From contig JADLEU010000369.1 of the NCBI GenBank assembly GCA_020845955.1, positions 8,462 through 72,461 of the forward strand: 64,000 nt of DNA, in the 5' to 3' direction. The position numbers and the translations under genes are program-made. Each line of letters opens with the position of its first letter. Positions within the stretch are counted from its first letter, which is position 1. This DNA comes from Anaerolineales bacterium. Its GTDB lineage: Bacteria; Chloroflexota; Anaerolineae; Anaerolineales; UBA6663. Below, piece after piece: positions 19,967 to 40,887 of the stretch. The notes beneath the pieces were generated by a model, which searched no databases, was not told the DNA's origin, and saw only the letters and a list, made by a program, of their open reading frames with translations.

Positions 19967-21310
19967 TCAGCCGGTCACCGCGGCGTCGGTCAACTCGAGC
20001 GCCCGGTTGATGATCTCGAAGGCTCCGCGCAGCTCGGCCTCGGTGATCGACAGAGGCGGGTTGGTGAAGAAGTTGTTCCAGTGGATGAAGACGTAGAGCC
20101 CGTGGTCCTTGAAGAAGGCGGCCAGACGCTGCATTTCAGGGCTGGTGCCGTTGAAGGGCGCCATTGGCTCCTTGGTCGCGCGGTTCTTGACAAGTTCGAT
20201 GATGCCGAACAGGCCGATCGAGCGGACGTCGCCCACGGAGGGATGCTCCGCCTTTAGGTCATCCAGCAGGCCGGCCATCACCCGGCCCTGCCGCTGGGTG
20301 TTGCCCAGGAGATCGTCGTCCTGGATGACCTTGAGGTTGGCGATCGCGGCGGCAAGCGACATGGGGTGAGCGTTGTAGGTCAGCCCGCCGTAGTAGATCT
20401 GATCGTCCCAATAGGCCGCGATCTTGCCGCTCATGGCCACCGCGCCCAGCGGCATGTAAGCGGAGGTCAAGCCCTTGGCCATGGTGATCAAATCGGGAAC
20501 CACGTTCCAGTGATCGACGGCGAACCAGGTGCCGGTACGGCCCAGTCCGCACATGACCTCATCGCAGATCAGCAGAATGCCGTGCCTGTCACAGATCGCG
20601 CGCAGGCCCTGGAGGTAGCCCTCCGGCGGAATGATCAGGCCGTTGGTGCCCGTAACCGTCTCGATGAAAATAGCGGCAATGGTGTACGCGCCCTCGTACT
20701 GGATGACTTCTTCGACCTGGTCGAGACACTTACGGGCAAAGACCTCGTCGCTGTCACCCGCCTGGTAGAGCAGGCTGCGATATTGATAAGGATCAAACAC
20801 CCGCACAATCCCCGGGAGGCCGGGCTCGTTGGCCCAGCGGCGCGGATCGCCGGTGAGGCTGATGGCGCCGGCAGTGGCGCCGTGGTACGAGCGGTAGCGG
20901 GTAATGATCTTCTGGCGGCCAGTATAGCCGCGCGCCAGCTTGATGGCGTTTTCGTTCGCCTCGGCGCCGCCTAACGTAAAGAAGAACTTGTTCAGGTCGC
21001 CGGGCGTGAGCTCGGCCAGCATGCGCCCCAGCTCGGCGCGCACCGGGGTGGCCATACCCGGCCCCGCGTAGACGAGCTCGTCGGCTTGAGCCTTGATCGC
21101 GTCGATCACGCGCTGGTCGCCGTGGCCAATGTTGACGCACATCAACTGCGAGTTCAGGTCGAGATAGCGCTTGCCATGCGCGTCCCAGAAATAGACGCCC
21201 TTGGCCTTAACCATGGGGATGGGGTTAACGGCGGCCTGGGCCGACCAGGAGTAGAAGGTGTGCCGCTTCGACAGCGCCACCATCTCTTCGGCAGACATCA
21301 TCGGTGTCAT
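19967..21310 (-). CDS. Class-III (omega/beta-alanine-type) aminotransferase
   Basis: The ATG at 21310 gives MTPMMSAEEMVALSKRHTFYSWSAQAAVNPIPMVKAKGVYFWD. The body is typical class III (LICDEVMCGLGRTG, PLP-Lys context ITMAKGLTS). The 130-aa upstream extension in the track is Arg/Pro-rich junk. Confidence 0.9.
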   Translation of the reverse strand: MTPMMSAEEMVALSKRHTFYSWSAQAAVNPIPMVKAKGVYFWDAHGKRYLDLNSQLMCVNIGHGDQRVIDAIKAQADELVYAGPGMATPVRAELGRMLAELTPGDLNKFFFTLGGAEANENAIKLARGYTGRQKIITRYRSYHGATAGAISLTGDPRRWANEPGLPGIVRVFDPYQYRSLLYQAGDSDEVFARKCLDQVEEVIQYEGAYTIAAIFIETVTGTNGLIIPPEGYLQGLRAICDRHGILLICDEVMCGLGRTGTWFAVDHWNVVPDLITMAKGLTSAYMPLGAVAMSGKIAAYWDDQIYYGGLTYNAHPMSLAAAIANLKVIQDDDLLGNTQRQGRVMAGLLDDLKAEHPSVGDVRSIGLFGIIELVKNRATKEPMAPFNGTSPEMQRLAAFFKDHGLYVFIHWNNFFTNPPLSITEAELRGAFEIINRALELTDAAVTG

Positions 21311-21357
21311 CGGCGGGCTCCTAAGTAGAGGTAAGCACCGGCCTATTGTACCGCCGG

Positions 21358-22779
21358 CTAGAGCACGGCGCCGTGGGCGGCCCGCTTGAGCCAGCTTCCC
21401 CCGCCCGGCTCGCCGTTCCAGGTGTCGCCGTCGACCAGCAAGTTTCCGCGCAGGTAGACCTGCTCGGGGACGCCGCGGATTTCCCAACCTTCGTACAGGT
21501 TGTAATCGGTGCGCTGGTGCGAGGTGCGGGCGCCCATCACACGCGTCGTATTCGGGTTCCAGATGACGACATCGGCGTCGGCGCCCACGGCCAGGGTGCC
21601 TTTGCGGGGGTAGAGGCCGAAGATCTTGGCCGGGTTCGTGCAGCACAACTCGACCAGGCGGTTGAGGCTGATCCGTCCCTGCCCCACGCCGTAGGTCCAC
21701 AGGATCGGCATACGGTCCTCGATGCCGGGCACGCCGTTGGGGATCTTGTCGAAGCTGTCGCTGCCCAGCTCCTTGCCCGGCATCACAAACGGCTGGCCTT
21801 CGTATTCAATCGGCTTCGTGCCGTCGAACAAAAACGGGCAATGATCAGTGGAGACGGCTTGCAGCGCATTGCTGCGCACGGCCTCCCACAGGGCAGCATG
21901 GTCGGCGGCGGTGCGCATGGGCGGCGAGCACACCCACTTGGACCCGTCGGGCTGGCGCAGGTTGTCGACGGTGAAGAAGAAGTACTGGGTGCAGGTCTCC
22001 CCCATCACAGATAGGCCGCGCGCCCGCCCATAGGTGATCTGGTCCACGGCCATGGCGTTGGTGACGTGGACGACATAGAGTGGGGCGCCAGCCATACCGG
22101 CCAGGGCTACGGCACGCATAGTGGCCTCGGCCTCGGCCCAGGCCGGATGCGTCAGCGCATGCCACTCGGCCGCGCGGTGCCCCTTGGCCAATGCGGCCTT
22201 GATGAGAGTGTCGATGACATCGCCGTTCTCAGCGTGGACCATGGTCAGCATGCCGGCCTCCGCCGCTTTCATCAGGGCTTTGAAGAAGGTGGTGTCGTCC
22301 ACCTGAAGTACGCCCTTGTAGGCCAGGAAGAGCTTGAGCGAGGTGATGCCTTCGCCGGCCAGGGTGGGGATCTCGTCCATGACGGCCGGCGTCAGGTCGG
22401 TTATGGCCAGGTGAAAGCCGTAGTCGATCGCGGCCCTGGCATCTGATTTCTTGTGCCAGTTCTCCATCGCCTGATGCAGCGATTCGCCCTTGCCCTGGAT
22501 GACAAAGTCGATGTGGGTGGTCGTGCCGCCAAAGGCCGCGGCCTTTTGGCCGGAATAGAAGTCGTCGGAGGCAAAGGTCCCGAAGAAAGGCAATTCCATG
22601 TGGGTATGCACATCGATGCCCCCCGGCAATACGTACTTGCCACTGGCATCGACGACGCGGGCGCCCTCCGGTCGCAGCTCGTGGCCGAGCAGCACGATCT
22701 TGTTGTCCTCGATCAGCAAGTCGGCCGGAAAGGTCTCGGCGGCGGTGACAAGGGTGCCATTCTTAATCAGGGTCTTCAT
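21358..22779 (-). CDS. Dihydropyrimidinase / D-hydantoinase (cyclic amidohydrolase)
   Basis: MKTLIKNGTLVT..LPGGIDVHTHMELPF..AAFGGTTTHIDF..SLKLFLAYKG..VHAENGD..PLYVVHV..STDHCPF..IPNGVPGIEDRM match the family end to end. Confidence 0.9.
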   Translation of the reverse strand: MKTLIKNGTLVTAAETFPADLLIEDNKIVLLGHELRPEGARVVDASGKYVLPGGIDVHTHMELPFFGTFASDDFYSGQKAAAFGGTTTHIDFVIQGKGESLHQAMENWHKKSDARAAIDYGFHLAITDLTPAVMDEIPTLAGEGITSLKLFLAYKGVLQVDDTTFFKALMKAAEAGMLTMVHAENGDVIDTLIKAALAKGHRAAEWHALTHPAWAEAEATMRAVALAGMAGAPLYVVHVTNAMAVDQITYGRARGLSVMGETCTQYFFFTVDNLRQPDGSKWVCSPPMRTAADHAALWEAVRSNALQAVSTDHCPFLFDGTKPIEYEGQPFVMPGKELGSDSFDKIPNGVPGIEDRMPILWTYGVGQGRISLNRLVELCCTNPAKIFGLYPRKGTLAVGADADVVIWNPNTTRVMGARTSHQRTDYNLYEGWEIRGVPEQVYLRGNLLVDGDTWNGEPGGGSWLKRAAHGAVL

Positions 22780-22842
22780 GGGGGCCTCGTGGAGAAAGCA
22801 GTCGTTGCTCGCTGCGGATGATGGGCGACGCGGCTGCGCCGC

Positions 22843-23760
22843 TCAGGCGGTTGGCCAATTGATCGTGGACTTCAAGAAATGGAGCGCCAGGAACCCGGCC
22901 AGACCGTCGGCGCCGGAGGTGTGCCCAACAGACAGCACGGCGTCGACGGCGGCGGCCAGGTCGGCCTGGCGCTGGGAGCTATCCGGCTGGCATAGGGCCG
23001 AAAACAAGGTGTGCCAAGGGAGGGCGCATTCGCCCTGGCTGGCGGCCCGCACATAGGCAGCGGACAGTGTCGAAGTCAGAGGCGCTACCGCCCGACCAAC
23101 GACCGCCCCCAGGTCGGGCGCGGCCGGGCCATAAAGGCCCGCCCAGGACGCCAGACAGGCGCCCACCACGAAGTCATCGCCTGCTGGCGTCAGCCCGGCG
23201 CCCAGCCCGGCCAGGCACTGTCCGCCGATGGCTGCCTGCTCGAGCTGGCCGGTCAGCAGCCCCGTCGCGAGATCGTCAACACCCGCACGCGCTCGTCCGA
23301 ACAGCCCGGGCGGCAAGGGTGAGCGATCCGCAGCGACCAAGAACAGATCGAGCAGGCTGCCCGGCAAGGCACGGTCCGCGACCAGCCGCACCAGCGCATC
23401 CAGGCGCCCCGGGTCGGCATCCAGGCAGATTCGCAGCTCAGACCAGGATGGGCGCGGATCCCATGTGCGCACACCCTCGCCGGCGTAATCCAGGCGCAAC
23501 GGCCCGACACGCAGAACGGGCGGCGCCCGCACCACCTGGCTTTCGACGGTTACGGCCTTGAACGAGCCGGCGCGATTGGGCGCCACGACCAATCCAAAGG
23601 GCGTCAAACCCCGCGCATTGGTGACCATGGACATTACCTCGCCGGCCGCATCCACCAGATTACAGGCACGGTCGAAGACGTTGAGCACCTGGGCCGGCCT
23701 CGATTGCGCAAGCCATGCGCGGGCGGCGGGTGTCATCGACACCGCGGTCAGGGTGAACAC
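22843..23760 (-). CDS. DUF2877 protein (YlbF/AllH-like)
   Basis: GLGAGLTPAGDDFVVG and VLSVGHTSGADGLAGF resemble the two signature blocks I recall for YlbF-family proteins. The start is GTG 23760 or ATG 23736. Confidence 0.6.
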   Translation of the reverse strand: MFTLTAVSMTPAARAWLAQSRPAQVLNVFDRACNLVDAAGEVMSMVTNARGLTPFGLVVAPNRAGSFKAVTVESQVVRAPPVLRVGPLRLDYAGEGVRTWDPRPSWSELRICLDADPGRLDALVRLVADRALPGSLLDLFLVAADRSPLPPGLFGRARAGVDDLATGLLTGQLEQAAIGGQCLAGLGAGLTPAGDDFVVGACLASWAGLYGPAAPDLGAVVGRAVAPLTSTLSAAYVRAASQGECALPWHTLFSALCQPDSSQRQADLAAAVDAVLSVGHTSGADGLAGFLALHFLKSTINWPTA

Positions 23761-23769
23761 GGCCAGGCC

Positions 23770-24651
23770 TCAGACCAGGGCGCGGGCGATGAACGCAGCC
23801 AGCGAGGTTGGGGAGCGGCCCAGCAGCCAGGTTAACACCTGGGGGCTGCCACCTAGTCCAAAGCGCGCGTAGTAATCGAACATGGCGCGCAGCGTCGCGC
23901 GCTGATAATCGCCCCGGCCAGCCGCGCGGGCGCGGGCCTCCCACTCCTCCATTGGCTCCACCTGAGCGCGCACCGGGCGGCCGAGCTGCGCGCTCAGCCT
24001 TTCCGCGACTTCCGTCTGGGAGAGGGGCAGCGTGCCCACCAGCTCGTAGGTCGCCCCAACGTGGCGAGAATCTTCCAGGTTCAGCACCTGGGCGGCCGCG
24101 GCGGCCACGTCGTCCAAGTCCACGAGGCTAAGGCGGGTTTCGACCGGATAGGGCACGGTATGGACACCGTGCTGAGTGATGGCCTTCCAGTCGGCCAACA
24201 GGTTTTGCATGTAGGGCGCCGGCTGAAGGATCGTGTAGTCCAGACCGGACTCGAAGAGCGCCTGTTCGACCCGCAGCTTGCCCCAATGGTGGGGCATCCG
24301 CTCGGTCTGCGGGTGAAGCACGGAATGGTAGACCATGCGCCTGACGCCGGCTGAGCGCGCAGCCCTAATGACGATCCGGCCGATCGCCAGCTCATCGGGG
24401 TGAACATTCGGGCAGAGGTGATAGACGGCCTGAGCGCCCGTGAGGGCGCGGCGCACGTCGCTCACGTCGCGCAGGTCGCCCGAGATTACGCTCAGAGCAC
24501 CCAGGGCGGTCACCGTGGGCGCGTCTTCAGGACGCCGCACAAAGGCGCGCACGGTCTGCCCCGCGGCCGCCAGAGGCTTGAGAACGGCACGCCCGGTCTT
24601 CCCGGCCGCGCCCATCACGACGATGATTTGGCCACCTCGACTAACTCCCAC
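23770..24651 (-). CDS. NmrA-like / atypical SDR NAD(P)-binding oxidoreductase
   Basis: The N-terminal Rossmann motif is IIVVMGAAGKTGRAV. A GTG start at 24651 is needed to keep beta-1, so the gene overlaps the upstream stop by 37 nt. The alternative ATG at 24615 would delete beta-1. Confidence 0.75.
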   Translation of the reverse strand: MGVSRGGQIIVVMGAAGKTGRAVLKPLAAAGQTVRAFVRRPEDAPTVTALGALSVISGDLRDVSDVRRALTGAQAVYHLCPNVHPDELAIGRIVIRAARSAGVRRMVYHSVLHPQTERMPHHWGKLRVEQALFESGLDYTILQPAPYMQNLLADWKAITQHGVHTVPYPVETRLSLVDLDDVAAAAAQVLNLEDSRHVGATYELVGTLPLSQTEVAERLSAQLGRPVRAQVEPMEEWEARARAAGRGDYQRATLRAMFDYYARFGLGGSPQVLTWLLGRSPTSLAAFIARALV

Positions 24652-26960: not shown

Positions 26961-26962
26961 CC

Positions 26963-27745: not shown

Positions 27746-27926
27746 AGGTCTCCTCTAGTAGTCGCTGTTGCGCGGGGATGAAAAGCGCAAGTGGCCGAGG
27801 TCAGCAGTTGAGAACCAGGGCGCCCTTCGAATTCAGGAACAGCTTCGGGCATGCCGAGGAGCGGTCCGGCGCCGGCGAAGTAGGGCGGCACAGGCTCCTG
27901 TGTCGGCGCCATCGGCCGTCCACCCG

Positions 27927-29171
27927 CTACAACCCATACTGGCCGGCGAACGCGACCAGCGCTTCCTCAAAGATCGCCATGGGCGGGCGTACCAAGCCGG
28001 CGCCGATCTGTCCCACCCCGGCCTGCTTGTGCGCGATGCCGGTGTTGACGCGTGGGGTGATCCCTGTTTCCACGACCTTGCGAATATCGATGCCGACCGG
28101 CGTGCCGCGGAAGTCCAGGGCCGGGATAGTGAAGTGTTTGTGCTCAGCTACGGTGATCTCATACATCTCCAGCGTGGCGTTGACGGCATGTTTGGGCGTA
28201 CTGCCGACAAAGGTGACGATGGCCGGAGCAGCGGCCATGGCGAATCCGCCGATGCCGGCGGTCTCGGTGATAGTGCTGTCACCGATGTCGGGGTTAGCGT
28301 CGGCGGCCGTAAAGCCAGGGAACCAGAGGCCTTGGGGCGTCTCGCACGGCGCCGCAAACCAGCGATCGCCCAGGCCGCTGACGCGCAGCCCAAAGTCCGT
28401 GCCGTTGCGGGCCATGACGCTCACGACGGTGCTGCCCTCGACATTGTGGGCCGCGTCGGCCATCGCTTTGCAGCCCGCCATGACCGGGTTGAGCACGCTG
28501 AGGGCGTTGTCACCCAGGAACTTGAGCACTTCGGCGGCCACGGCGCTGTCGCCGGACGCGCGCGCGACCAGCGGGGCCAGCCACTTTAGAAACAGCAGCG
28601 ATCCGGCCTTGTTGCGGTTGTGACCCTCGTCGCCCATGTGCAGTGCTTCGGACAGCAGGGCCCGCACGTCCAAGCCGTCGGGACTACTGGTTATGGCTTC
28701 GGCCAGCACCGGCCCCATAACGGTGTTCATCCAGCGCAGGCGATTGAGCACGTCGGCGCTGAAGGCGCCGTAGCGCAGCACCTTGCCATAACCCTCGTTA
28801 AGGTTGGAGTAGGCACGATTGCCATGAGTGATGTTTTCGACGATGTAGACCAGCATGGAGGCCGAGGTGACGCCGGCCATCGGCCCAACCGTGGCGTGCT
28901 CGTGACAGGGCGCGAAGTCCACCTCACCGCGCTCGACCATGGCCACTGCGGCTGGCTCGTCCGGCGCCAGGCCCTCGTAGATCAGCGCGCCGATCACGGC
29001 CCCGCGCAAGGGACCCGACATGCGCGCCCACTCGATCGGCGGCCCAGCGTGCAGCAGCAGATTGGGTCGCATACCGGGGACGACATCACGGGCCGGCGCC
29101 AGGCCTTTGAGAATTGGCCGGGCGGACATCATCTTCTCGACGGCAGTCTGGTTGGCAGCAGCGATGTCCAC
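27927..29171 (-). CDS. DUF1116 protein (YlbE/AllG-like)
   Basis: The protein is collinear with E. coli YlbE as I recall it. Shared blocks include LLHAGPP, GEVDFAPCHEH..VGPMAGVTSASM, VENITHGNRAYSNLNEGYGKVLRYGA, GDSTITETAGIGGFAMAAAP and VETGITPRVNTGIAHKQAGVGQIGAG. The start is GTG, with AGGAG 6 nt upstream. Confidence 0.85.
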   Translation of the reverse strand: MDIAAANQTAVEKMMSARPILKGLAPARDVVPGMRPNLLLHAGPPIEWARMSGPLRGAVIGALIYEGLAPDEPAAVAMVERGEVDFAPCHEHATVGPMAGVTSASMLVYIVENITHGNRAYSNLNEGYGKVLRYGAFSADVLNRLRWMNTVMGPVLAEAITSSPDGLDVRALLSEALHMGDEGHNRNKAGSLLFLKWLAPLVARASGDSAVAAEVLKFLGDNALSVLNPVMAGCKAMADAAHNVEGSTVVSVMARNGTDFGLRVSGLGDRWFAAPCETPQGLWFPGFTAADANPDIGDSTITETAGIGGFAMAAAPAIVTFVGSTPKHAVNATLEMYEITVAEHKHFTIPALDFRGTPVGIDIRKVVETGITPRVNTGIAHKQAGVGQIGAGLVRPPMAIFEEALVAFAGQYGL

Positions 29172-31054: not shown

Positions 31055-32347
31055 CTAGTGGCGCAGCACCCCCAACGCGCCAGCCAACTGCGGCGCCGCC
31101 CAGCCCAGAAGCGATTCGTCCGCCTGCCAGCGCCCGATCACCTGTAGGCCGAGTGGCAGTCCATTGCCCGCCTGGCCGGCCGGAAGGCTGACGGCGGGCA
31201 ACCCGCTGTGGGTCCAGGGCAGATTCATCACGGGGTCGCCGGTGCTGTCCAGGCCGCGCGGCGCGGGACCAGGGGCAGCGGGCGCCAGCCAGACGTCTAG
31301 CTCATGCGCGTCCATCAGAGCCAGCAGCTCAGCCCGCAGGGCGGCGCGGCCGGACAGGGCCTCCGCCAGGGCTTCGGGCGCCACGGCCTGCCCTCGCTCG
31401 ATCAGCTCAACCGTTTTGGAGTGATACAAGTCCCGGTAGCGGCGGAACCAGGCAGCATGCACCCCAGCGGCCTCGGCCGCCACGATCAGGTTGTGCCGCG
31501 CCCGGATCGCTTCGAAGTCCGGCATAGCTGGCACGAGGCGCACGTCGTATCCGGCACCCGCCAGGCGTTGCACAGCCAGCCGCAGATGGGCCTGGGCCTC
31601 GGCACTGGCCTGGGCCAGGTAAGGTCCCTCGGGGATGCCCACCACGGGCCTCCCGGTGGGCGAAACCGCCAGCCACTCCTGGCAGAGCAGTTCAGCCGCC
31701 AACGCGACCCCAGGTAGATCTAACGCGAAGACGCCTACATGGTCGAGCGAAGGCGACAACGGGATAACGCCGTCGGCCGCAATCCGGCCGTAGGTCGGCT
31801 TGTAACCGACCACGCCGCAATAGGCAGCCGGGCGAATGATCGACCCAATGGTTTGCGTGCCAAGCGCCAATGGACACAGGCCGGCCGCCACGGCAGCCGC
31901 GGAGCCGCTGCTAGAGCCGCCCGGCGTATGTTCGGGCTGGCAGGGATTGCGTGTGGGGCCCGGCGCAAAATAGGCGAACTCGGTGGAGATGGTTTTTCCC
32001 AGCACCAAGGCGCCGGCAGCCTTCAACCGGGCAACCGCGGCGCTCTCGGGCCCCCGCAGCACTTCGGGAGGCAGCCGGCTGCCACCGCGCGTCGGCAGGC
32101 CGGCGGCATGAAAGATGTCCTTTACGCCCAGCAGAACGCCGTAGAGTGGTGGGCGGGCGGACGGGTTCGGGTAAGCAGTCTCGAGCTCCGCCGCCTCGCG
32201 CCGCAGCCGTTCAAAACGGTCCTCTTCGGGAACAAACGCCTGCACAGCCGGCTCGACCTCAGCAAAACGGCGCTCAAGATCGGCGTAGTAATCGCCAAGC
32301 GACAATTGGCCCATGCGCAAGGCCGCGGCCAATTCAGTCAAGTTCAC
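31055..32347 (-). CDS. Amidase-signature (AS) family amidase
   Basis: GVKDIF (catalytic Lys context) and the GGSSSGSAAAVAAG signature are present. The GTG start overlaps the upstream gene by 14 nt. Confidence 0.85.
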   Translation of the reverse strand: MNLTELAAALRMGQLSLGDYYADLERRFAEVEPAVQAFVPEEDRFERLRREAAELETAYPNPSARPPLYGVLLGVKDIFHAAGLPTRGGSRLPPEVLRGPESAAVARLKAAGALVLGKTISTEFAYFAPGPTRNPCQPEHTPGGSSSGSAAAVAAGLCPLALGTQTIGSIIRPAAYCGVVGYKPTYGRIAADGVIPLSPSLDHVGVFALDLPGVALAAELLCQEWLAVSPTGRPVVGIPEGPYLAQASAEAQAHLRLAVQRLAGAGYDVRLVPAMPDFEAIRARHNLIVAAEAAGVHAAWFRRYRDLYHSKTVELIERGQAVAPEALAEALSGRAALRAELLALMDAHELDVWLAPAAPGPAPRGLDSTGDPVMNLPWTHSGLPAVSLPAGQAGNGLPLGLQVIGRWQADESLLGWAAPQLAGALGVLRH

Positions 32348-32837
32348 GGCTGGCAGCTCCGAGGTTACCCCTTTGGGCGGCTAGAAGCACCGCATCGACA
32401 ATATGCTGGTAGCCCGTGCAGCGGCAAAGATTGCCTGAGATTGCCTCGCGCACTTCGGGTTCGGTCGGGTTCGGGTTTTCGGCCAGGAAGGGCACCAGCG
32501 TCATCAGGAAACCGGGGGTGCAAAAGCCGCACTGCAGGCCATGGGCGTCGCGGAAGGCCTGCTGGAGGGGATGCAGCTGGTTTGGGTCGGCTGCCAACCC
32601 CTCGACCGTCAGGAGCGCATGGCCGTTGGCCTGCACCGCGAGCATCAGGCAGGAGCGGACCGGCTGGCCGTCGAACATGACGGTGCAGGCACCACAGACG
32701 CCATGCTCGCAGCCCACGTGCGTGCCGCTGAGACCCAGTTCGTGCCGCAAGAAGTCGCTGAGGAGTAGGCGCGCCTCCACCTCGCGCGCGTAGACTTGGC
32801 CGTTAATGGTGACCGAAATGGCGTGACGGGCATTCAT
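32334..32837 (-). CDS. (2Fe-2S)-binding small subunit of a molybdenum hydroxylase (CoxS-like)
   Basis: Both cluster motifs are present: GCEHGVCGACTV and CGFCTPGF..NLCRCTGY. The junction with the upstream gene is an ATGA overlap. Confidence 0.9.
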   Translation of the reverse strand: MNARHAISVTINGQVYAREVEARLLLSDFLRHELGLSGTHVGCEHGVCGACTVMFDGQPVRSCLMLAVQANGHALLTVEGLAADPNQLHPLQQAFRDAHGLQCGFCTPGFLMTLVPFLAENPNPTEPEVREAISGNLCRCTGYQHIVDAVLLAAQRGNLGAASRELD

Positions 32838-33733: not shown

Positions 33734-33739
33734 CGCGGG

Positions 33740-34609
33740 TCAGGCCGCCGGGTTCGTGAGGTCGCCGTACATCTCCGGCCGGCGGTCGCGGTAGAATTGC
33801 CAGGTGTTGCGTACCTGGCGCACCTGGTCGAGATCCAGGTCGCAGACGATCAACTGCTCTTCGCAGTCGCTGGCCTTCGGCGCCCCGGTTGTGAGATCGG
33901 GCAGGTACTGGCCGCGCGGGTCGGTGAAGTATGAGCTGCCATAGTAGTCGTTCGGCCCTAGGTCAGGCTCCCGTCCCACGCGGTTGATGGTGCCGACAAA
34001 GACGCCGTTGAAGATGGCGTGCGCGCGCTGCTCGATGTCCCACAAGTGCATCGATAGCCCGCGTGAGGTGGCCGAAGGGATGAAGATCAGTTCGGCGCCG
34101 TGCAGGCCCAGCAGCCGCGGCCCTTCGGGGAAGTGACGGTCGTAGCAAATATAGACGCCGACGCGACCGGCGGCAGTATCAAAGACCGGGTAGCCCAGGT
34201 TGCCGGGCTTGAAATAAAACTTCTCCCAGAAGCCGGTCACCTGGGGGATATGGGTCTTGCGATACTTGCCCAGGTAGGTGCCGTCGGCGTCGATCACGGC
34301 GGCCGTGTTGAAGTAGACGCCGGTCTGCTCCTCTTCGTACATGGGCACAATCAGCACCAGTTTGTGCCGGCGGGCCAGGTCCTGCATTAGGCGCGTGGTC
34401 GGGCCGTTAGGGATCGCCTCGGTGTAGTTGTAGAACTGCGGATCCTGTACCTGGCAAAAATAAGGGCCGTAGAAGAGCTCCTGAAAACACATCACCTGTG
34501 CCCCCTGGTCGGCAGCCTGCTCGACATAGGCGACGTGCTTGTCAATCATCGACTGCTTGTCGCCAGTCCAGGTGGCCTGCAACAGAGCACCGCGGATCAG
34601 ACGTGACAT
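33740..34609 (-). CDS. Beta-ureidopropionase-type nitrilase-superfamily carbamoyl-amidohydrolase
   Basis: The ATG at 34609 has GAGGGAG upstream. The E-K-C triad contexts are CFQELF, GKYRKTHIP and VYICYDRHFPE. NGPTTRLMQDLARRHKLVLIVPMYEEE closely parallels eukaryotic-type beta-alanine synthase. The 130-aa upstream extension in the track is rejected. Confidence 0.85.
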   Translation of the reverse strand: MSRLIRGALLQATWTGDKQSMIDKHVAYVEQAADQGAQVMCFQELFYGPYFCQVQDPQFYNYTEAIPNGPTTRLMQDLARRHKLVLIVPMYEEEQTGVYFNTAAVIDADGTYLGKYRKTHIPQVTGFWEKFYFKPGNLGYPVFDTAAGRVGVYICYDRHFPEGPRLLGLHGAELIFIPSATSRGLSMHLWDIEQRAHAIFNGVFVGTINRVGREPDLGPNDYYGSSYFTDPRGQYLPDLTTGAPKASDCEEQLIVCDLDLDQVRQVRNTWQFYRDRRPEMYGDLTNPAA

Positions 34610-34630
34610 CGGATCTCCCTCGCTGTGGTT

Positions 34631-34682
34631 CCCCTCAGACCCCTGGCCCCTTGGGTCACAAGGGGCCAGGAGGCCTGAGGGG
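34631..34682 (-). promoter_or_regulatory. Very stable ~22-bp GC-rich stem-loop between the binding-protein gene and the beta-ureidopropionase gene
   Basis: cccctcag-acc-cctggccccttg / ggtca / caaggggccagg-aggc-ctgagggg pairs as 12 bp plus 2 bp plus 8 bp, with a 5-nt loop and small bulges. No U-tract follows on either strand. Confidence 0.5.
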
Positions 34683-34697
34683 CATTCTTGCTGGCGC

Positions 34698-35864
34698 CTA
34701 TTCGCCGCCGGGGTTGAGCTCGACGGTGATGGGGGTGAAGTTGGCGCCGATCGTGTCGCCCTCGAGGCCGTCGAGCGCCTGGGCCGACAGGTCGGTGCGG
34801 GCTGCGCCCTCGTCCGGCTCGGCGGCGAACACCGCCCCCTCGAGCGCGACGCGGACGGTCTGATCGTATAGGGCCTGGTCCAACTGGCCGATGCCGTTGG
34901 GCGAAGGCCAGATGAGTTTGTTGACTTCGTTGAGCTGCCAGCGCATGTGGCTCTCGCCCAGCGTGGGACCAGCATCGAGCACATGCTGCACACAGGCATC
35001 GAAGTTATCGCGGCAGAACATCCAGCCGCGATAGCTGGCGCGCAGGAAGCGCACGGCCACGTCTTCGCTGCCCGGTTGGCCGAGCCAGCTCTCGGTGGTC
35101 CAGACGGCGTCCTGGAGCATGGCGGTGCCGACTTCGTTGTAGTCGATGACGCTCAGGTCACCAGGCTGATAAAGCTCGCCGGTAGCCGGGTTCACCTGCT
35201 CAAGCACCTGGGCATACTCATTGTACGTCATTGCCTCGGCCGCGTCGATCTCATCGGTCAGCAGCAGAGTCATGTCGAAGGGCTGGATCTTGATAGTCAC
35301 ATCGTCGGGGTTTTCAGGATCGATGCCGGCAGCGCGCAGGGCTGCAAAGACCTCGTGCTCGTTGCCGAAGTCCCACACGCCGACGCGCTTGCCGCGCAGA
35401 TCCGCGACGCCACTGATCCCCTTGGACGTGAACGAGACGGAGAGCGTGCCCGAGCGCTGGAAGACCTGGCTGATGTTCACCAGGTCGGCGCCCTGCTCGC
35501 GCGACTGGAGCGCCTTGGGCACCCAGGCCAGGCAGAACTCCGCGCCGCCGTTGGCGCAGACCTGTTGCGGAGTGATCTCGGGCGCGCCTTCGAGGATGGT
35601 GACGTCGAGGCCTTCCGCTTCGTAGTAGCCTTGGCCCAGCGCGGCGTAATAGCCGGCGAACTGGGATTGCGCCACCCATTGCAGCTGCAGCCTAACAGGC
35701 GTCAGCGCGGCGGGGGGCGCCTGAGTTGCGGCCGGCGCTTCCGTTGCGGCCGGCGCTTGCGTTGCGGCCGGCGCCTGGGTGGCGGTGGCGGCCGGGCTGC
35801 AGGCGCTCAACAGCAGGCCGATCAAGGCCATTGCGCCGGCCAGGCGTGAAACAGTGCGGTTCAT
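34698..35864 (-). CDS. ABC transporter substrate-binding lipoprotein, NMT1/THI5-like (NitT/TauT family)
   Basis: MNRTVSRLAGAMALIGLLLSAC is a lipobox signal. It is followed by an (ATQAPA)n linker and then an NMT1-like body (QLQWVAQSQFAGYYAA). A GGAGGAG Shine-Dalgarno sequence precedes the ATG at 35864. Confidence 0.85.
   Translation of the reverse strand: MNRTVSRLAGAMALIGLLLSACSPAATATQAPAATQAPAATEAPAATQAPPAALTPVRLQLQWVAQSQFAGYYAALGQGYYEAEGLDVTILEGAPEITPQQVCANGGAEFCLAWVPKALQSREQGADLVNISQVFQRSGTLSVSFTSKGISGVADLRGKRVGVWDFGNEHEVFAALRAAGIDPENPDDVTIKIQPFDMTLLLTDEIDAAEAMTYNEYAQVLEQVNPATGELYQPGDLSVIDYNEVGTAMLQDAVWTTESWLGQPGSEDVAVRFLRASYRGWMFCRDNFDACVQHVLDAGPTLGESHMRWQLNEVNKLIWPSPNGIGQLDQALYDQTVRVALEGAVFAAEPDEGAARTDLSAQALDGLEGDTIGANFTPITVELNPGGE
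35725..35778 (-). repeat. In-frame 18-bp tandem repeat (3 clean units, degenerate units on both sides) encoding the Ala/Thr/Gln/Pro lipoprotein linker
   Basis: The three units are gttgcggccggcgcttcc, gttgcggccggcgcttgc and gttgcggccggcgcctgg. They translate on the minus strand to the linker ATQAPAATQAPAATEAPAATQAP. Confidence 0.7.
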
Positions 35865-35979
35865 GCAGGTCTCCTCCAATGCCAATTGAGTGGAACGATC
35901 GATGGAACAGCCGGCAAGGCGATCGAGGTCAGGCGGCCTCCTTTCTGGCCGGGCATCGCCGGCCGGGTCGCGACGCTGC

Positions 35980-36810
35980 TCAGTGGTCTTGAGCGCGCAC
36001 CGAAATGTGCCAAGGCATGGCGACGCGCTCGATCAAGGCGATGAGCCAATAGAAGACAATGCCGACCAGGCTGACGAGCAGAATTGCGGCCCAGGTGTTG
36101 GCAAAGCGAAACGCGGCCGACTCTTGGGTAATGTACTTACCAATCGTCAGTCGGTCGACGCCAAAGAAATCAGCCACTACGGCGCCGATCATGCTGAGCA
36201 CCGTGGCCACGCGCAGGGCGCTGAACACAAACGGCAGCGCGTTCGGGATGCGCAGCGCGACCAGCACCTTGAAGTCGCTGGCGGCGTAGGAGCGCATGAG
36301 CTCCAGGGCGCGTGGGTTCACCAGGGTCAGGCCACGCACCGCGTTGATCATCACAGGGAAGAAGACGATAACGGCGACGATTACCATCCAAGAAAAGGGA
36401 TTGCTCGGGCCAAACCAATTGAACAGGATCGGCGAGAAGGCCACGATGGGCACCGAGTTGGCCGCAATCGCAAACGGCAGCATGGCCTGCCGCAGCGTCA
36501 CCCAGCGGGCGGTGATCAGCGCCACCAGCAGGCCAAGCCCGACGCCCAGCGCGAAGCCGCCTAGAGCGCTGCGCAGGGTGCTGAGCGCCTTGCTGGTGAG
36601 AATGGGCCACTGATCCACCAGCGCCTGCACAATACTGGTCGGCTTGGGCAGCAGAAACTCGCGGATCCCCAGGAAGCGCACCGCCACTTCCCAAGCCACT
36701 AACAGCAGCGCCGCTACCAGCACGGTAGGCAGGTAGAACCGCAAGCGCTCCAGGGCGCGCCGGCCGTGCGGCGTCGTGGTGTTGGCAGAAGCGGCTGAGG
36801 CGCTGATCAT
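35980..36810 (-). CDS. ABC transporter permease (BPD_transp_1, NitT/TauT family)
   Basis: The ORF is a ~6-TM membrane protein with the EAA-like loop region (LMRSYAASDFKVLVALRIPNALPF). Confidence 0.85.
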   Translation of the reverse strand: MISASAASANTTTPHGRRALERLRFYLPTVLVAALLLVAWEVAVRFLGIREFLLPKPTSIVQALVDQWPILTSKALSTLRSALGGFALGVGLGLLVALITARWVTLRQAMLPFAIAANSVPIVAFSPILFNWFGPSNPFSWMVIVAVIVFFPVMINAVRGLTLVNPRALELMRSYAASDFKVLVALRIPNALPFVFSALRVATVLSMIGAVVADFFGVDRLTIGKYITQESAAFRFANTWAAILLVSLVGIVFYWLIALIERVAMPWHISVRAQDH

Positions 36811-36833
36811 GGTGTCAATGGCAGGCAGCCGGC

Positions 36834-37658
36834 TCAGGCGCCATAGGCCTCGCGCAGGCTCTCGCGCACGTCGGTGACCGCGGTGAAAAATCGCGGGTCC
36901 TCGCGCGTCTCGAAATTGCGCGGGCGCGGCAGGTCAATGTCAATCACTTTCGTGATCTGGCCCGGGCGCGGCGACATGACCACCACCCGGTTGGATAGGA
37001 ACACGGCCTCGGCGATGCTGTGAGTCACGAAGATGACGGTGCCGCCGGTCTGGTCCCAGATCTTAAGCAGTTCCATATTCATACGCTCGCGCGTGAACTC
37101 GTCCAGCGCGCCGAAGGGCTCATCCATGAGCAGCAGGGCCGGCTGAAAGGCCAATGCGCGGGCGATGGCCACCCGCTGCTGCATACCGCCCGAAAGCTGC
37201 CAGGGATAATGCCGGGCAAACTGCTCCAGTTCGACCAGCCTGAGCATCTCGCGAGCGCGCTGGGCACGCCTGGCCGGTGAATAGCCCATCACCTCCAGCG
37301 GCAGTTGGACGTTGTGGGCCACCGTGCGCCACTCATAGAGCGTGGCGGCCTGGAAGACAAAACCATAGTCCCGGTCCAGGCGCGCCTGGCGCGGCGGTTT
37401 GCCATTGACCAGCAGGTCGCCGGACGTGGGCTCGAGCAGATCGGCGATCAAGCGCAGCAGGGTCGACTTGCCGCAGCCCGAGGGGCCAGTGAGCGAAATA
37501 AACTCATTGGCCTGGACCTCCAGGTTGATGTCCTTAAGCGCCACCATGGTCTGCCCGCCGCCAAGCTCGAACACCTTGCTCGCATTGCGCACGGCCACGA
37601 CCGGCGCGCCGGGGGCGTCTTCCGGGGTGCCGCGCGCCTGCCTGGTGATCTCTGCCAA
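36834..37658 (-). CDS. ABC transporter ATP-binding protein (NitT/TauT family)
   Basis: Walker A GPSGCGKST, signature LSGGMQQRVAIARAL and Walker B LLLMDEPFGALD are present. The start is TTG at 37658, with GGAGG 9 nt upstream. Confidence 0.9.
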   Translation of the reverse strand: MAEITRQARGTPEDAPGAPVVAVRNASKVFELGGGQTMVALKDINLEVQANEFISLTGPSGCGKSTLLRLIADLLEPTSGDLLVNGKPPRQARLDRDYGFVFQAATLYEWRTVAHNVQLPLEVMGYSPARRAQRAREMLRLVELEQFARHYPWQLSGGMQQRVAIARALAFQPALLLMDEPFGALDEFTRERMNMELLKIWDQTGGTVIFVTHSIAEAVFLSNRVVVMSPRPGQITKVIDIDLPRPRNFETREDPRFFTAVTDVRESLREAYGA

Positions 37659-37686
37659 GGCTATACGCCTCCGATCGCGAGTCTAG

Positions 37687-38979
37687 TTACTCGGCCGCCG
37701 GCCGGGTGCGCAAGAACCAGCGCTCCACCAGCGACACCGCCGCAAAAAACAGCATGCCCACCAGAGCGGCCATCAAGATTGTAGCCCATAACTTCTCAGG
37801 CTCCGCGGCGTAGTTGCCGCTGGCGCGCAGGATGGCCGCCGCCAAGCCGTCGCTGCGGCTGGAAGGCAGCTCACCCACGATAGCGCCCACGACGCTACCG
37901 GTGGCCGACACTTTGAGAGCCGTGAAGATGTAGGGCAGGGCTGCCGGAAGCCGCAGTTTCCTCAGGACGATCCAGCGCGAGGCAGCGTAAGAGCGCAGCA
38001 GCTCCAGCGCCATGGGATCAGGCGACAGCAGCCCGCGCAGCGTATTAATGGTCACCGGGAAGAAGGTCAGGTAGGCCGAAATGACGGCGACGGGCACCCA
38101 TCCGGCGCCCAGCGCGGTCACGATCATCGGCGCCAGCGCCAGGATGGGCACGGTCTGCGAAGCGACCGCGTAGGGCAGCAGCGCCCGCTCAAGCAGACGC
38201 GAGTGGGCAAAAAGAGCACCCAGGCCGAAGCCCAGCAGACTGCCGGCCACAAACCCGGTAAAAGCCTCGCGCCAAGTTATGTAGGCCGCATCGGCCAGGA
38301 TGCTGACCAACAGCACCGGGCCGTTACGCCGGGCCGGTTGGAGCAGTTGCTCGACGATGTCCTGCCAGTGTGGCATTTTCCAGGGGAAGTCGGTCAGCGG
38401 AAGTCGGCCGCCGGCCGCCTGGCCCAAAGCGATGTAGACCTCCCAAAAGAGCAGGGCGGCGGCAATGACGACGCCGGTGCCCATCACGGCGGAGACCGTT
38501 CCCTGGGTCACGAAGAGCAGCGCCAGGGCCAGCGCCAGCCCCGCCAGTACCAGCCAGTACCACGCCCCGGCTGCCACCGGAACGATTACTAGCAGCAACA
38601 CAAAAGCCAGCAGCGCCCAGAACAGCACCGGGCGGCTTGCACGCGGCAGAATCCAGAGCCTCCACATGCCGGCCAACGACGCGGCGGCAGCCATGACGTG
38701 AAGCGCGACCAGCACCAACCGCGCCCGAGCCAGATAGCGGCCGGGCTCGGCATTAGTGCGGCCGGCCAACCAGAGCGCTAATTGGCCCGGGGTCGATTCC
38801 ACCAAGCCGGGGTGGTCGGACGGCGCCAGGGCATAGCCAAGCGCCAGAAGCGTCGCCACGATCAGGAGCCCCGCCGCCAGCCAGAGCGGGAGCCAGCGGC
38901 CGGCCTTCGCGCGCGCTCGAGCCGCGGTGGACAGGCCGGGCCGCAGGGAACCAACATTGGACTCAAGGAAATTCGCCAT
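37687..38979 (-). CDS. ABC transporter permease with a ~170-aa N-terminal multi-TM extension
   Basis: The C-terminal half has the same BPD_transp_1 pattern (LLRSYAASRWIVLRKLRLPAALPY). The N-terminal half adds hydrophobic helices. Confidence 0.8.
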   Translation of the reverse strand: MANFLESNVGSLRPGLSTAARARAKAGRWLPLWLAAGLLIVATLLALGYALAPSDHPGLVESTPGQLALWLAGRTNAEPGRYLARARLVLVALHVMAAAASLAGMWRLWILPRASRPVLFWALLAFVLLLVIVPVAAGAWYWLVLAGLALALALLFVTQGTVSAVMGTGVVIAAALLFWEVYIALGQAAGGRLPLTDFPWKMPHWQDIVEQLLQPARRNGPVLLVSILADAAYITWREAFTGFVAGSLLGFGLGALFAHSRLLERALLPYAVASQTVPILALAPMIVTALGAGWVPVAVISAYLTFFPVTINTLRGLLSPDPMALELLRSYAASRWIVLRKLRLPAALPYIFTALKVSATGSVVGAIVGELPSSRSDGLAAAILRASGNYAAEPEKLWATILMAALVGMLFFAAVSLVERWFLRTRPAAE

Positions 38980-39000
38980 GACTCCGCCGCCAGCGCGCGA

Positions 39001-40887
39001 TCAGTGCGCCTCGGCGCGCACCGCGTTGGGCAGCACGGTTTCGGCTGTGGGAACGCCGTTGGCATCCCAGGCCCGTAGACGATAGTAATCGGCCAGCATG
39101 CGCGGCATGTCGGGCAGCACGCCGGCCGCGCTGCCGGTTGGGCGCGGCTCGTGCGCCAGGCGATAGGGGAGCACGTCGTCGCGAGCCGTGACGCCCAGGC
39201 GCACATTGATCAAACGTTTGTAGTTGAAGATACGGGCGCCGGTGTCGAGCAGGTCAGCGCCCGTCCACTGCCAGCCCATGGCCCGGTTGAGAAGTTCAGC
39301 CATCTGGGCCGGCGCGTACGACCCCTTGGCGATGAACTTACACAGGCCGCCAGGGTTGAACACACTCATGTAGTTCTGGAAGTCCACGGCCATCTGCGCG
39401 CCCAGGCTAGAATCGAAGCGCTTGGCGTCGATCCAGGCCTGGGCGTCGCCCTCCTGCCAGCCAGGCCACTCAAGGCCGACCCCGCGCCAATAAGAGATGG
39501 CCTCCAGGTGGCAGGCGCCACGGTTGGCGGTGGCGTAGTTGGCGGCCATACTCACAAAGCCACGCGGATCGTGGTAGGGCATCTCCAGGCCCTTGACATG
39601 CATGGCGAACTTGCCCGAGGCCTGCCCAATGCGCGCCGCGGCGGCGCGCACCCCGTCAGCCAGCAGATCGCCGAGATCTTCGCGCCGGGCAATCTTGTCG
39701 ATCATGGTCAGGATGGCCCCGGCGTCGCCCCAATGCAGGGCAATGCCGCCCGTGTCGGCCTCAGTGATCAGGCCCTTTTCGAAACACTCGAAGGCAAACG
39801 CCAGCACGCCGGTTGTGGAGATCGTGTCGAGCGCATGGCGGTTGCACGCGTCATTCATCGCCGCGATGGCGTTGAGATCGTCGCACTGCAAGTTGGACCC
39901 AAAACCGCAGAGGGTTTCGTATTCTGGCCCCTCGCCCGAGACACCGGCATAGGGACCCGCCTTGATCTCGACCGCCTTGCCGCAGCCGATGGGACAGGCG
40001 TGGCAAAACGTATGCTTGGAAAAGATCGTTTCAGCAATGGCTTTGCCAGAGGTCTTGACCGTGCCTTCGAGCCAGCTACCGCCGCGCCAGTTGCGGATGG
40101 CGTTGTCGCCAAACGTATCGGTCGCGGGATGGCCGCCGGCCGTGCCGACCAGATGCAGCGCCTCAGCCGCACCGTGGGACATGATGGAATGGTTGCTTTC
40201 TTTGACCACGGCGTGGAAACCCTTGGCGTCGGCGTACGTTGGCTTCTCCTTGCCGCGCACCACAATCGCCTTGACGCGCTTCGCGCCCATCAGCGCGCCC
40301 ATGCCGCCCCGGGCAGCCAGGCGCGAATGGGTGCGCCCACCGCTCGCCACACCCGCAATCCTGACCAGGTTTTCACCGGCCTGCCCGATCGAGGCGCAGC
40401 GGGCCTTGGGATCGGTCTCCGCCAACAGCCGGTCGTGTGTCTCGAACTGGTCCTGCCCCCAAACATGACTGGCGTCGCGGAACTCAACGCCCTCCGCGGT
40501 CACCCATAGGTAGCTCGGCTGCTGGCACTGCCCAGTGAGGATCAGACCGTCCCAACCGGCAAAGCGCAGCTCGGCGCCCCAGTGGCCGCCCAGATTGGCC
40601 TCGTTCCAGATGCCGGTAAGCGGAGAGCGCCCACACCACGAAGAGCGGCAGCCGGTTGGCGCGAAAGTGCCAGACAGCACGCCGTTGATCACGATCAGAG
40701 GATTGCGCGGATCGAGGGGATCGATCGCCGGGTTCAGGAGGTCGGCAAACTCCTCGCAGAGAATCTTGGCCGCCAGACCCGAACCTAACAGGAAGGCCTG
40801 GACTTCGACCTCGGTTACTGGCCGGACAGACACGTGCCGCCCGGTAAGGTCTATCCGCAAGATCTTCCCGGAGTAAACGTTCGGCAT
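39001..40887 (-). CDS. aor: Aldehyde:ferredoxin oxidoreductase family (tungsto/molybdopterin, 4Fe-4S)
   Basis: The ATG at 40887 (GGGAG 8 nt upstream) gives MPNVYSGKILRIDLTGRHVSV, a typical AOR N-terminus. FCHACPIGCGK is the cluster motif. The protein is ~628 aa. The 72-aa upstream extension in the track is rejected. Confidence 0.9.
   Translation of the reverse strand: MPNVYSGKILRIDLTGRHVSVRPVTEVEVQAFLLGSGLAAKILCEEFADLLNPAIDPLDPRNPLIVINGVLSGTFAPTGCRSSWCGRSPLTGIWNEANLGGHWGAELRFAGWDGLILTGQCQQPSYLWVTAEGVEFRDASHVWGQDQFETHDRLLAETDPKARCASIGQAGENLVRIAGVASGGRTHSRLAARGGMGALMGAKRVKAIVVRGKEKPTYADAKGFHAVVKESNHSIMSHGAAEALHLVGTAGGHPATDTFGDNAIRNWRGGSWLEGTVKTSGKAIAETIFSKHTFCHACPIGCGKAVEIKAGPYAGVSGEGPEYETLCGFGSNLQCDDLNAIAAMNDACNRHALDTISTTGVLAFAFECFEKGLITEADTGGIALHWGDAGAILTMIDKIARREDLGDLLADGVRAAAARIGQASGKFAMHVKGLEMPYHDPRGFVSMAANYATANRGACHLEAISYWRGVGLEWPGWQEGDAQAWIDAKRFDSSLGAQMAVDFQNYMSVFNPGGLCKFIAKGSYAPAQMAELLNRAMGWQWTGADLLDTGARIFNYKRLINVRLGVTARDDVLPYRLAHEPRPTGSAAGVLPDMPRMLADYYRLRAWDANGVPTAETVLPNAVRAEAH

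Follow-up and report, generated by a model that had tools for sequence, protein, structure and literature searches.

The oxidative pyrimidine pathway of Rhodococcus erythropolis relies on a uracil/thymine dehydrogenase, barbiturase and ureidomalonase. Mentions of this pathway are found in PMC3758960 and PMC4051656. A second described system of relevance is the carbamoyltransferase AllFGH of Escherichia coli, which in purified form catalyses the reversible reaction of oxalurate with phosphate to oxamate and carbamoyl phosphate (PMC11326118). Genes resembling components of both systems lie together in an array of 17 minus-strand genes (19967-40887) within a 64-kb stretch of contig JADLEU010000369.1 of an Anaerolineales bacterium, in the following referred to as the window, and this array is the subject of the present analysis.

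The array is a mosaic of three layers, i.e. a conserved core, a set of accessory genes and a backbone pair. As a whole, it may be a composite cluster for the catabolism of a uracil-type pyrimidine, the core of which would represent a variant of the oxidative (barbiturate) pathway, a proposal that we regard as evenly poised between right and wrong. A pyrimidine substrate is supported because relatives carry genes for uracil-permease-like NCS2 carriers, cytosine-deaminase-like proteins and malonyl-CoA-synthase-like proteins beside the core.

In the scheme put forward here, a molybdenum (Mo)/flavin adenine dinucleotide (FAD)/iron-sulfur (FeS) hydroxylase would convert uracil to barbiturate, which a cyclase-family metal hydrolase, acting in place of the classical barbiturase, would open to ureidomalonate. 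Ureidomalonate is the one-carbon-longer homologue of oxalurate and, in parallel to the oxalurate reaction, the AllFGH-like enzyme would combine it with phosphate to give malonamate and carbamoyl phosphate. A malonamidase-E2-like amidase would release malonate and ammonia from malonamate, a carbamate kinase encoded elsewhere in the window (61053-61988) would turn the carbamoyl phosphate into ATP, and a MatB-like ligase, found in relatives, would activate the malonate. Uptake would fall to an NMT1-type ATP-binding cassette (ABC) importer, substituting for the uracil-permease-like NCS2 carrier of other lineages. A lower reductive side branch might be attached to this route, with dihydropyrimidinase and a carbon-nitrogen (CN) hydrolase converting dihydropyrimidines or related ureido compounds to beta-alanine, and with an aminotransferase and an aldehyde:ferredoxin oxidoreductase (AOR) taking beta-alanine through malonate semialdehyde to malonate.

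The array and its conserved core

Scans against Pfam and NCBIfam gave a secure family assignment for each of the 17 array genes, which are, in the order of transcription:

39001..40887, minus strand: AOR; AFOR_N 220 bits, AFOR_C 402 bits
37687..38979, minus strand: ABC permease 1; BPD_transp_1, residues 250-422
36834..37658, minus strand: ABC ATPase, NitT/TauT type; ABC_tran match
35980..36810, minus strand: ABC permease 2; BPD_transp_1 match
34698..35864, minus strand: NMT1/THI5-like substrate-binding lipoprotein; PF09084, 116 bits
33740..34609, minus strand: CN-hydrolase, N-carbamoyl-amine amidohydrolase group; PF00795, 207 bits
32834..33733, minus strand: CoxM-like FAD subunit; FAD_binding_5 and CO_deh_flav_C
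32334..32837, minus strand: CoxS-like 2x[2Fe-2S] subunit; Fer2_2 and Fer2
31055..32347, minus strand: amidase-signature amidase; PF01425, 229 bits
29223..30923, minus strand: FdrA/AllF-like protein; NF004760, 508 bits (cutoff 433)
27927..29171, minus strand: DUF1116/AllG-like protein; PF06545, 302 bits
26963..27745, minus strand: cyclase-family metal hydrolase; PF04199, 128 bits
24615..26960, minus strand: CoxL-like molybdopterin subunit; three Mo-cofactor-binding domains
23770..24615, minus strand: NmrA-like NAD(P)-binding protein; PF05368 and PF13460
22843..23760, minus strand: DUF2877/AllH-like protein; PF11392, 70 bits
21358..22779, minus strand: dihydropyrimidinase/D-hydantoinase; TIGR02033, 563 bits (cutoff 393)
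19967..21310, minus strand: class-III (omega-amine) aminotransferase; PF00202, 298 bits, and NF004718, 547 bits (cutoff 472)

The family identities proposed in an earlier, sequence-only reading of this DNA were all upheld by these scans. Its count of 20 consecutive genes was too high, its own list naming 17 and the three further downstream genes being unrelated. It had also described gaps mostly under 100 nt with overlaps; intergenic distances range from -14 to 181 nt, with overlaps at three junctions (e.g. coxS overlaps coxM by 4 nt). The same-strand run itself, on the other hand, is not special within the window, because about 45 minus-strand open reading frames (ORFs) with high third-position G+C tile nearly all of its 64 kb (whole-window G+C about 67%). 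Tight spacing and conservation, unlike co-orientation, are what sets the array apart.

The comparisons extended to 165 related loci overall, with all 17 proteins compared against 85 loci; those referred to as full loci are 33 species loci in which the sequence extends at least 7 kb upstream and at least 5 kb downstream of the cyclase gene. The order coxM-coxS-amidase-allF-allG-cyclase-coxL is found exactly in 22 of the 33 full loci, each of these seven core genes is present in 26-30 of them, and the core proteins are 50-90% identical between relatives. Such conservation of the neighbourhood, which the sequence-only reading had named as a check, is far above chance. Few core members are as constant as AllF and AllG, which are not an allantoin module that landed there by accident; the NmrA and AllH genes are frequently found downstream of that for CoxL.

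The remaining genes behave differently. The accessory layer, consisting of the ABC importer, CN-hydrolase and dihydropyrimidinase, is confined to the nearest relatives: among the full loci, the CN-hydrolase and the dihydropyrimidinase occur in 4 of 33 each and the aminotransferase in 2 of 33, all of them in the closest relatives, and over the 85 loci the CN-hydrolase is found in 9 and the dihydropyrimidinase in 8. The notion of three equal modules joined in one pathway, as first proposed, is therefore abandoned, since the core recurs without these genes. One relative (L037) has the order binding protein, CN-hydrolase, dihydropyrimidinase and then the core, and the accessory genes are therefore a movable add-on.

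The AOR locus, in turn, is found in two states. In five relatives (L093, L114, L111, L092, L097), the ABC block and the core follow the AOR gene as in the window; in five others (L088, L089, L095, L098, L102), an orthologue of the aminotransferase (72-77% identical) follows it, with only a small variable gene in between. The intervening genes (DUF4013, enoyl-CoA hydratase, Uma2, DUF559) give no functional clue. The second state includes two loci (L088 and L095) that share the upstream synteny of the window, and AOR and aminotransferase are also paired in more distant contigs. Therefore, a 19-kb block sits between the backbone pair formed by AOR and the aminotransferase. In these comparisons, the reductive-type genes come out as a recent addition and AOR plus aminotransferase as a pre-existing pair.

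Enzymes of the core and of the outer layers

The CoxL, CoxM and CoxS domains were all found, giving the three-subunit Mo/FAD/[2Fe-2S] architecture of the uracil/thymine dehydrogenase type. The active-site loop of CoxL, PYRGAGR, aligns with YACSFR of 8uem and YRCSFR of 1ffu, both of which contain the copper-binding CSFR (the loop of aerobic, form I CO dehydrogenases being AY[RA]CSFR), and with YRGVG of quinoline 2-oxidoreductase. CoxL was placed by bit-score ranking against solved structures, in place of a formal tree: carbon monoxide (CO) dehydrogenase comes first (553 bits), followed by quinoline oxidoreductase (514) and 6-hydroxypseudooxynicotine dehydrogenase (484), and the scores span 444-553 bits across the nearest solved relatives, whose substrates differ. 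On this ranking, and given the absence of the CSFR loop, no clade of known unrelated substrate takes in the Mo enzyme, an outcome that the sequence-only reading had named as one that would refute it. The identity of CO dehydrogenase itself (CODH_aero_grp5, 908 bits) was considered and rejected, the scores being below cutoff (NF040766, 908.6 against 950; TIGR02416, 579.5 against 991) and the copper-binding loop missing. From its sequence, CoxL appears to be a hydroxylase, not a CO dehydrogenase, and is predicted to be a C-H hydroxylase of the uracil type.

The exact sequence of the window CoxL was not on record when looked up, and more than 120 cluster representatives are 76-91% identical to it, chiefly from Anaerolineales assemblies. 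Many of these orthologues (P0001-P0120) carry the name 'carbon-monoxide dehydrogenase large subunit' in one data source. Counts of coxL in Chloroflexota-rich metagenomes may, on such grounds, overstate the potential for CO oxidation. The NmrA-like gene adjoins coxL in 19 of the 85 loci. Short-chain dehydrogenase/reductase (SDR) genes were also noted in L172 and L169, and a Halorussus plasmid has an epimerase-family SDR close to XdhC.

The cyclase-family protein contains HMGTHLDAPHH, i.e. the HxGTHxDxPxH metal motif, most of which does not vary among 23 homologues. Kynurenine formamidase and isatin hydrolase, the latter an opener of a lactam ring, are the solved relatives of this protein, and it is predicted to be the ring-opening amidohydrolase for the hydroxylated pyrimidine. 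Relatives 74-91% identical to it are found, and a genome scan with a pattern drawn from the alignment of cyclase homologues reached at least 591 species genomes. Patterns from a single protein reach close relatives only, and the genome scan with the lone AllH protein returned nothing. A gene of family PF05635 ('23S rRNA intervening sequence protein' family, a small four-helix bundle) lies between allG and the cyclase gene in 29 of the 85 loci, including L010, L029 and L046; it is absent from the window, where the gap 27746-27926 is empty.

All three subunits of the carbamoyltransferase have counterparts in the array. AllF is 40% identical to E. coli AllF and likewise to YahF, AllG 51% to E. 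coli AllG and 50% to YahG, and AllH 31% to E. coli AllH, so that the three proteins are about equally close to the uncharacterized YahF, YahG and YahE. Three genes, those for the cyclase, CoxL and NmrA, lie between the AllG and AllH genes, and the detection of AllH in 23 of the 85 loci is probably an undercount because the protein is divergent.

The best solved relative of the amidase is malonamidase E2 (1ock, E=4e-51, full length), with which K62, S131, T150, S155 and R158 pair as identical residues (GVKD, GGSSSG, GTQT, GSIIRP). These include what we take to be the Ser-cisSer-Lys catalytic triad and an arginine, Arg158, three residues past the nucleophile, that presumably binds the carboxylate. 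The predicted reaction is the hydrolysis of malonamate to malonate and NH3. The likeness to malonamidase E2 suggests successive steps for the AllFGH-like enzyme and the amidase; the sequence-only reading had seen them as alternatives, a view not supported here.

The kinase that would close the energy-conserving part of the scheme is the following:

61053..61988, minus strand: carbamate kinase; TIGR00746, 375 bits (cutoff 358)

It is 52% identical to E. coli YahI, and a carbamate kinase gene adjoins the core in one related locus (L008). The region in which the window copy lies (55872-64000, minus strand) is a second nucleobase-type cluster. Its importer consists of a Bmp/PnrA-type binding protein (59665-60939), a double ABC ATPase (57992-59635) and two BPD_transp_2 permeases (55872-57990), and it also encodes an ornithine carbamoyltransferase (OTCase)-family carbamoyltransferase (61994-62974), which scores below every NCBIfam cutoff, and an adenine-deaminase C-terminal-domain protein (63045-63956).

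As for the outer layers, the ABC ATPase has the taurine ABC ATPase as its best NCBIfam match (228 bits, below cutoff), and the nearest solved relatives of the binding protein include ThiY, a binder of a formylaminopyrimidine (3ix1, E=1e-9). The NMT1/THI5-like protein is predicted to be the importer component for the pathway substrate. ABC permease 1 has a hydrophobic N-terminal extension of about 155 amino acids that is kept only in the closest relative, L092; in other relatives the alignment begins near residue 156-200.

The CN-hydrolase, a candidate beta-ureidopropionase, is about as close to N-carbamoylputrescine amidohydrolase (182 bits) as to beta-ureidopropionase (178-180 bits), and it scores under the aguB cutoff. 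The best solved relative of the aminotransferase is taurine:2-oxoglutarate aminotransferase (6jix, 373 bits), which makes it a putative omega-amine enzyme acting on two-carbon-spaced substrates, and a candidate for the beta-alanine aminotransferase. AOR, which is of the tungsten type, is predicted to oxidize the aldehyde coming from the aminotransferase, e.g. malonate semialdehyde. The absence of two enzymes, as noted by the sequence-only reading, was borne out: dihydropyrimidine dehydrogenase was not found by tblastn with E. coli PreT/PreA (E<=1e-6, >=40% coverage) in the window or in the 165 related loci, and barbiturase (AtzD/cyanuric-acid-hydrolase fold) has no match among the 17 proteins or the scanned flanking ORFs.

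Gene neighbourhoods and rival explanations

All ORFs of the 85 loci were clustered, and the representatives were scanned against Pfam and NCBIfam. XdhC (25 loci) and CoxG (21 loci) are found beside the core and fit an active Mo hydroxylase. An NCS2 permease is found there in 14-16 loci, with NCBIfam scores of 220 bits for uracil permease, 175 for RutG and 125 for xanthine permease. ABC importer and NCS2 permease occur next to the core in 16 loci each with zero overlap, as would be expected if they were alternative importers of one substrate. In 10 loci there is a ligase with 541 bits to the malonyl-CoA synthase model (cutoff 558), often immediately after AllH. Cytosine-deaminase-like amidohydrolases (4 loci) and family-III CoA-transferases (4 loci) also lie beside the core, and a 5'-3' exonuclease was identified among the rarer neighbours. 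Typically, the layout is that of a divergent NCS2 gene followed by CoxG-XdhC-CoxM-CoxS-amidase-AllF-AllG-cyclase-CoxL-(NmrA)-AllH-MatB.

More distant genomes repeat parts of this combination. On a megaplasmid of Halostagnicola larsenii, XdhC, CoxS, CoxL, CoxG, CoxM and the cyclase lie beside an annotated cytosine deaminase, a cytosine permease (codB) and NCS2 carriers; AOR, a class-III aminotransferase, an M20 hydrolase and two amidohydrolases are found there as well. On a Halorussus plasmid, the Mo hydroxylase and the cyclase recur together. We take the haloarchaeal cluster as supportive, not decisive. In the cultured actinomycete Nonomuraea gerenzanensis (NZ_LT559118, at about 9.29 Mb; L174), CoxM-CoxS-CoxL are accompanied by two NCS2 genes and a PucR-like regulator, all of them divergent from AllH-AllF-AllG, with an AllG 55% identical to that of the window and with no cyclase or amidase nearby, so that this locus would combine the Mo hydroxylase and the three-part carbamoyltransferase in minimal form. 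Two Rhodococcus plasmid matches were not used because their contexts are unrelated, that to the cyclase lying among aromatic dioxygenase genes and that to AllG among glutamine-synthetase-like genes.

Several points weigh against a uracil-to-malonate route. While gene identities, spacing, conservation and context are observed, every substrate and reaction comes from context and homology. NCS2, MatB, XdhC and CoxG are all missing from the window itself, and the uracil-permease and malonyl-CoA-synthase matches in relatives are both under their curated cutoffs. The distant clusters are distant indeed, identities to the window being 38% (cyclase), 31% (CoxL), 45% (aminotransferase) and 31% (AOR) in the haloarchaea and 47% for CoxL in Nonomuraea. 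AllH is detected in only 13 of the 33 full loci. The known ureidomalonase is reportedly an amidase-signature enzyme too, and the amidase alone could release urea, which would leave the AllFGH-like enzyme without a job. The window carbamate kinase lies 20 kb upstream of the array, beside the OTCase-family gene and the nucleoside importer, and may serve another pathway. Finally, the NmrA-like protein has no role in any proposed scheme, and dihydropyrimidinase and CN-hydrolase lack a dihydropyrimidine dehydrogenase to feed them.

The best-surviving rival, although an unlikely one, is a single linear hybrid pathway in which all 17 genes would serve one substrate: the product of the Mo enzyme would be opened by dihydropyrimidinase or cyclase, the ureido acid would pass to CN-hydrolase, amidase or AllFGH, and the amine to aminotransferase and AOR. 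The tight interleaving of the genes, with the CN-hydrolase upstream of the core and dihydropyrimidinase and aminotransferase downstream, speaks for it, as does the retention of this arrangement in several relatives (L001/L044, L007, L093, L114), and the haloarchaeal megaplasmid likewise has Mo hydroxylase and cyclase near amidohydrolases, M20 hydrolase, aminotransferase and AOR, with no dihydropyrimidine dehydrogenase in view. However, in most species the core does without dihydropyrimidinase, CN-hydrolase and aminotransferase, AOR adjoins the aminotransferase in related genomes that lack the whole block, and no chemically plausible path was found from a hydroxylated, i.e. more oxidized, pyrimidine to beta-alanine. 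Of the undescribed hybrid route for an N-heterocycle envisaged by the sequence-only reading, the pyrimidine-type substrate is thus backed by the neighbours, and no description was found in the literature, but not the idea of one indivisible three-module pathway. The literature search left most subscription journals outside its reach, so that the lack of a description of the cluster is not proof of novelty.

It is also improbable, and a little more so, that the Mo hydroxylase and cyclase act on another N-heterocycle or an aldehyde (e.g. a pyridine, a quinoline, a thiamine-type pyrimidine or a xenobiotic), with the pyrimidine-like neighbours being coincidental. The nearest solved CoxL relatives do act on CO, quinoline or a nicotine intermediate, the nearest characterized relative of the binding protein binds a thiamine-breakdown pyrimidine, and the transporter and ligase matches are all under curated cutoffs. 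Yet three independent signals, from the type of importer, the likeness of the amidase to malonamidase and the MatB-like ligase, point to uracil in and malonate out, and the array contains neither a ring-cleavage oxygenase nor any other gene of an aromatic pathway.

Poorer still, by a small step, is the prospect of a two-carbon ureide series, in which a purine-derived or imidazolidine heterocycle would lead to oxalurate, AllFGH would carry out its known reaction, the amidase would act on oxamate, and the ligase or CoA-transferase would activate oxalate. Oxalurate is the sole proven AllFGH substrate, the family-III CoA-transferases adjoin the core in 4 loci, the ligase is slightly under the malonyl-CoA synthase cutoff, and a PucR-like regulator is found in the Nonomuraea locus. 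Against this, the array lacks allantoinase, allantoate amidohydrolase and ureidoglycolate dehydrogenase, the NCS2 carrier is closer to uracil permease than to xanthine permease, cytosine-deaminase-like genes occur in relatives and haloarchaea, and the amidase and ligase are nearest to malonamidase and malonyl-CoA synthase, respectively.

That functionally unrelated genes merely share a strand in a mostly minus-strand region, as the tiling of the window by such ORFs and the separable layers might suggest, is very improbable, being contradicted for the core by the seven-gene order in 22 of 33 loci with proteins 50-90% identical, and further opposed by gaps down to -14 nt and by the lack of an excess of terminator-like sites inside the array.

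A bolder form of the uracil-type proposal can be stated, for which our expectation is distinctly lower and which we offer as tentative. The core would be an unrecognized energy-conserving pyrimidine route, widespread in Anaerolineae, in which the uracil dehydrogenase that has long been sought would turn out to be of the CoxL type, a cyclase-fold enzyme would replace barbiturase, ureidomalonate would be a second physiological substrate of the AllFGH family and the ureido group would be converted to ATP by way of carbamoyl phosphate. In the present lineage, a lower branch without dihydropyrimidine dehydrogenase, with a tungsten-type AOR as its last enzyme, would have been joined to this route, both converging on malonate, and the large Chloroflexota 'CO dehydrogenase' clade that environmental surveys count would consist of nucleobase hydroxylases.

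Turning to the boundaries of the array, one consensus match was found upstream of its first gene:

41037..41064, minus strand: sigma-70-like promoter match TTGACT-16-TAGAAT; 10/12 consensus positions, about 150 nt upstream of the AOR start; a consensus match only

GGGAG precedes the AOR ATG at 40887. The region 41037-41281 is an AT-rich island and contains, at 41232-41281, a perfect 10-nt inverted repeat (TGTCATTGAT / ATCAATGACA, 30 nt apart), which could be a putative operator; a run of 11 G lies near 41112-41122. The array itself encodes no regulator gene, and an Rfam scan of the window gave no riboswitch or leader RNA match. Terminator-like sites show no excess inside the array and none falls within the intergenic gaps, as judged by a crude scan to which Chloroflexota signals may not conform.

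The upstream flank has a wax-ester-synthase-like gene, unrelated to the array, and two conserved minus-strand ORFs (42666-43391 and 43400-44506) with no secure Pfam family, one of them with a faint MFS match. The 241-residue ORF of this pair is syntenic with AOR in five relatives (L088, L092, L095, L096, L116). Downstream, on the minus strand, follow three genes unrelated to the array, namely an ORF without a family (19168-19764), an S-adenosylmethionine (SAM) methyltransferase (18434-19237) and a 1763-residue protein in which a C-terminal GGDEF domain is combined with 7-8 GAF domains (13153-18444). The methyltransferase and GAF/GGDEF pair also comes after the aminotransferase gene in L001 and L007, and in L044 the methyltransferase does so before the flank ends; the pair is therefore the syntenic downstream boundary of the cluster.

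Relation to known systems

If the proposed route is correct, the oxidative pyrimidine pathway would be assigned genes in a major phylum that is rich in uncultured members, two of the three classical enzymes of that pathway would have undergone non-orthologous replacement, and AllFGH would gain a second substrate and, with it, a general role in acylurea phosphorolysis that saves ATP. A function would also be suggested for the E. coli yahEFGIJ genes, and a large, highly conserved CoxL clade would be re-labelled, which is of consequence wherever CO oxidation in metagenomes is deduced from coxL counts. The scheme lends itself to direct testing, uracil, barbiturate, ureidomalonate and malonamate being simple small molecules.

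With the oxidative pyrimidine pathway, the locus shares a Mo/FAD/FeS hydroxylase of three subunits, a hydrolase predicted to open the ring and an amidase of the amidase-signature family, as well as a predicted malonate end product, which fits the MatB-like ligase of relatives. It differs in having a PF04199 cyclase in the place of barbiturase, the only candidate ring hydrolases being the cyclase and dihydropyrimidinase, in an AllFGH-type carbamoyltransferase that is integral to the cluster, and in an amidase that resembles malonamidase E2. Nitrogen would accordingly leave as carbamoyl phosphate and ammonia, not as urea.

The resemblance to E. coli AllFGH and AllK (PMC11326118) consists in the presence of all three subunit families, of a carbamate kinase in the window and of the proposed acylurea phosphorolysis. 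Differently from E. coli, there is no contiguous allFGHK operon, AllH being three genes off and carbamate kinase 20 kb off; no allantoin-pathway genes (allB, allC, allD, allE) occur among the scanned window ORFs, the proteins are as near to YahEFG, and the proposed substrate is ureidomalonate instead of oxalurate.

As in the reductive pyrimidine pathway (PydA/PreTA, PydB, PydC and beta-alanine aminotransferase), a dihydropyrimidinase, a CN-hydrolase that is no closer to any other enzyme than to beta-ureidopropionase, and an omega-amine aminotransferase are found, but no dihydropyrimidine dehydrogenase, and the aldehyde step would be carried out by a tungsten-type AOR rather than by a CoA-acylating dehydrogenase. 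Unlike that pathway as a unit, the reductive-type genes are here a clade-specific addition and not a conserved part.

The E. coli yahEFG-yahI-yahJ cluster is similar in its DUF2877, FdrA-like and DUF1116 proteins, its carbamate kinase and its cytosine-deaminase-like amidohydrolase, the last of which has its counterpart in 4 relatives; it is without Mo hydroxylase, cyclase and amidase-signature amidase and, being uncharacterized, offers no substrate. Lastly, the hydroxylase shares with form II CoxL-like and quinoline 2-oxidoreductase-type enzymes the three subunits, a YRGxG-type loop and the conserved catalytic Glu, but its CoxL forms a distinct clade, set in a gene context of the nucleobase type.

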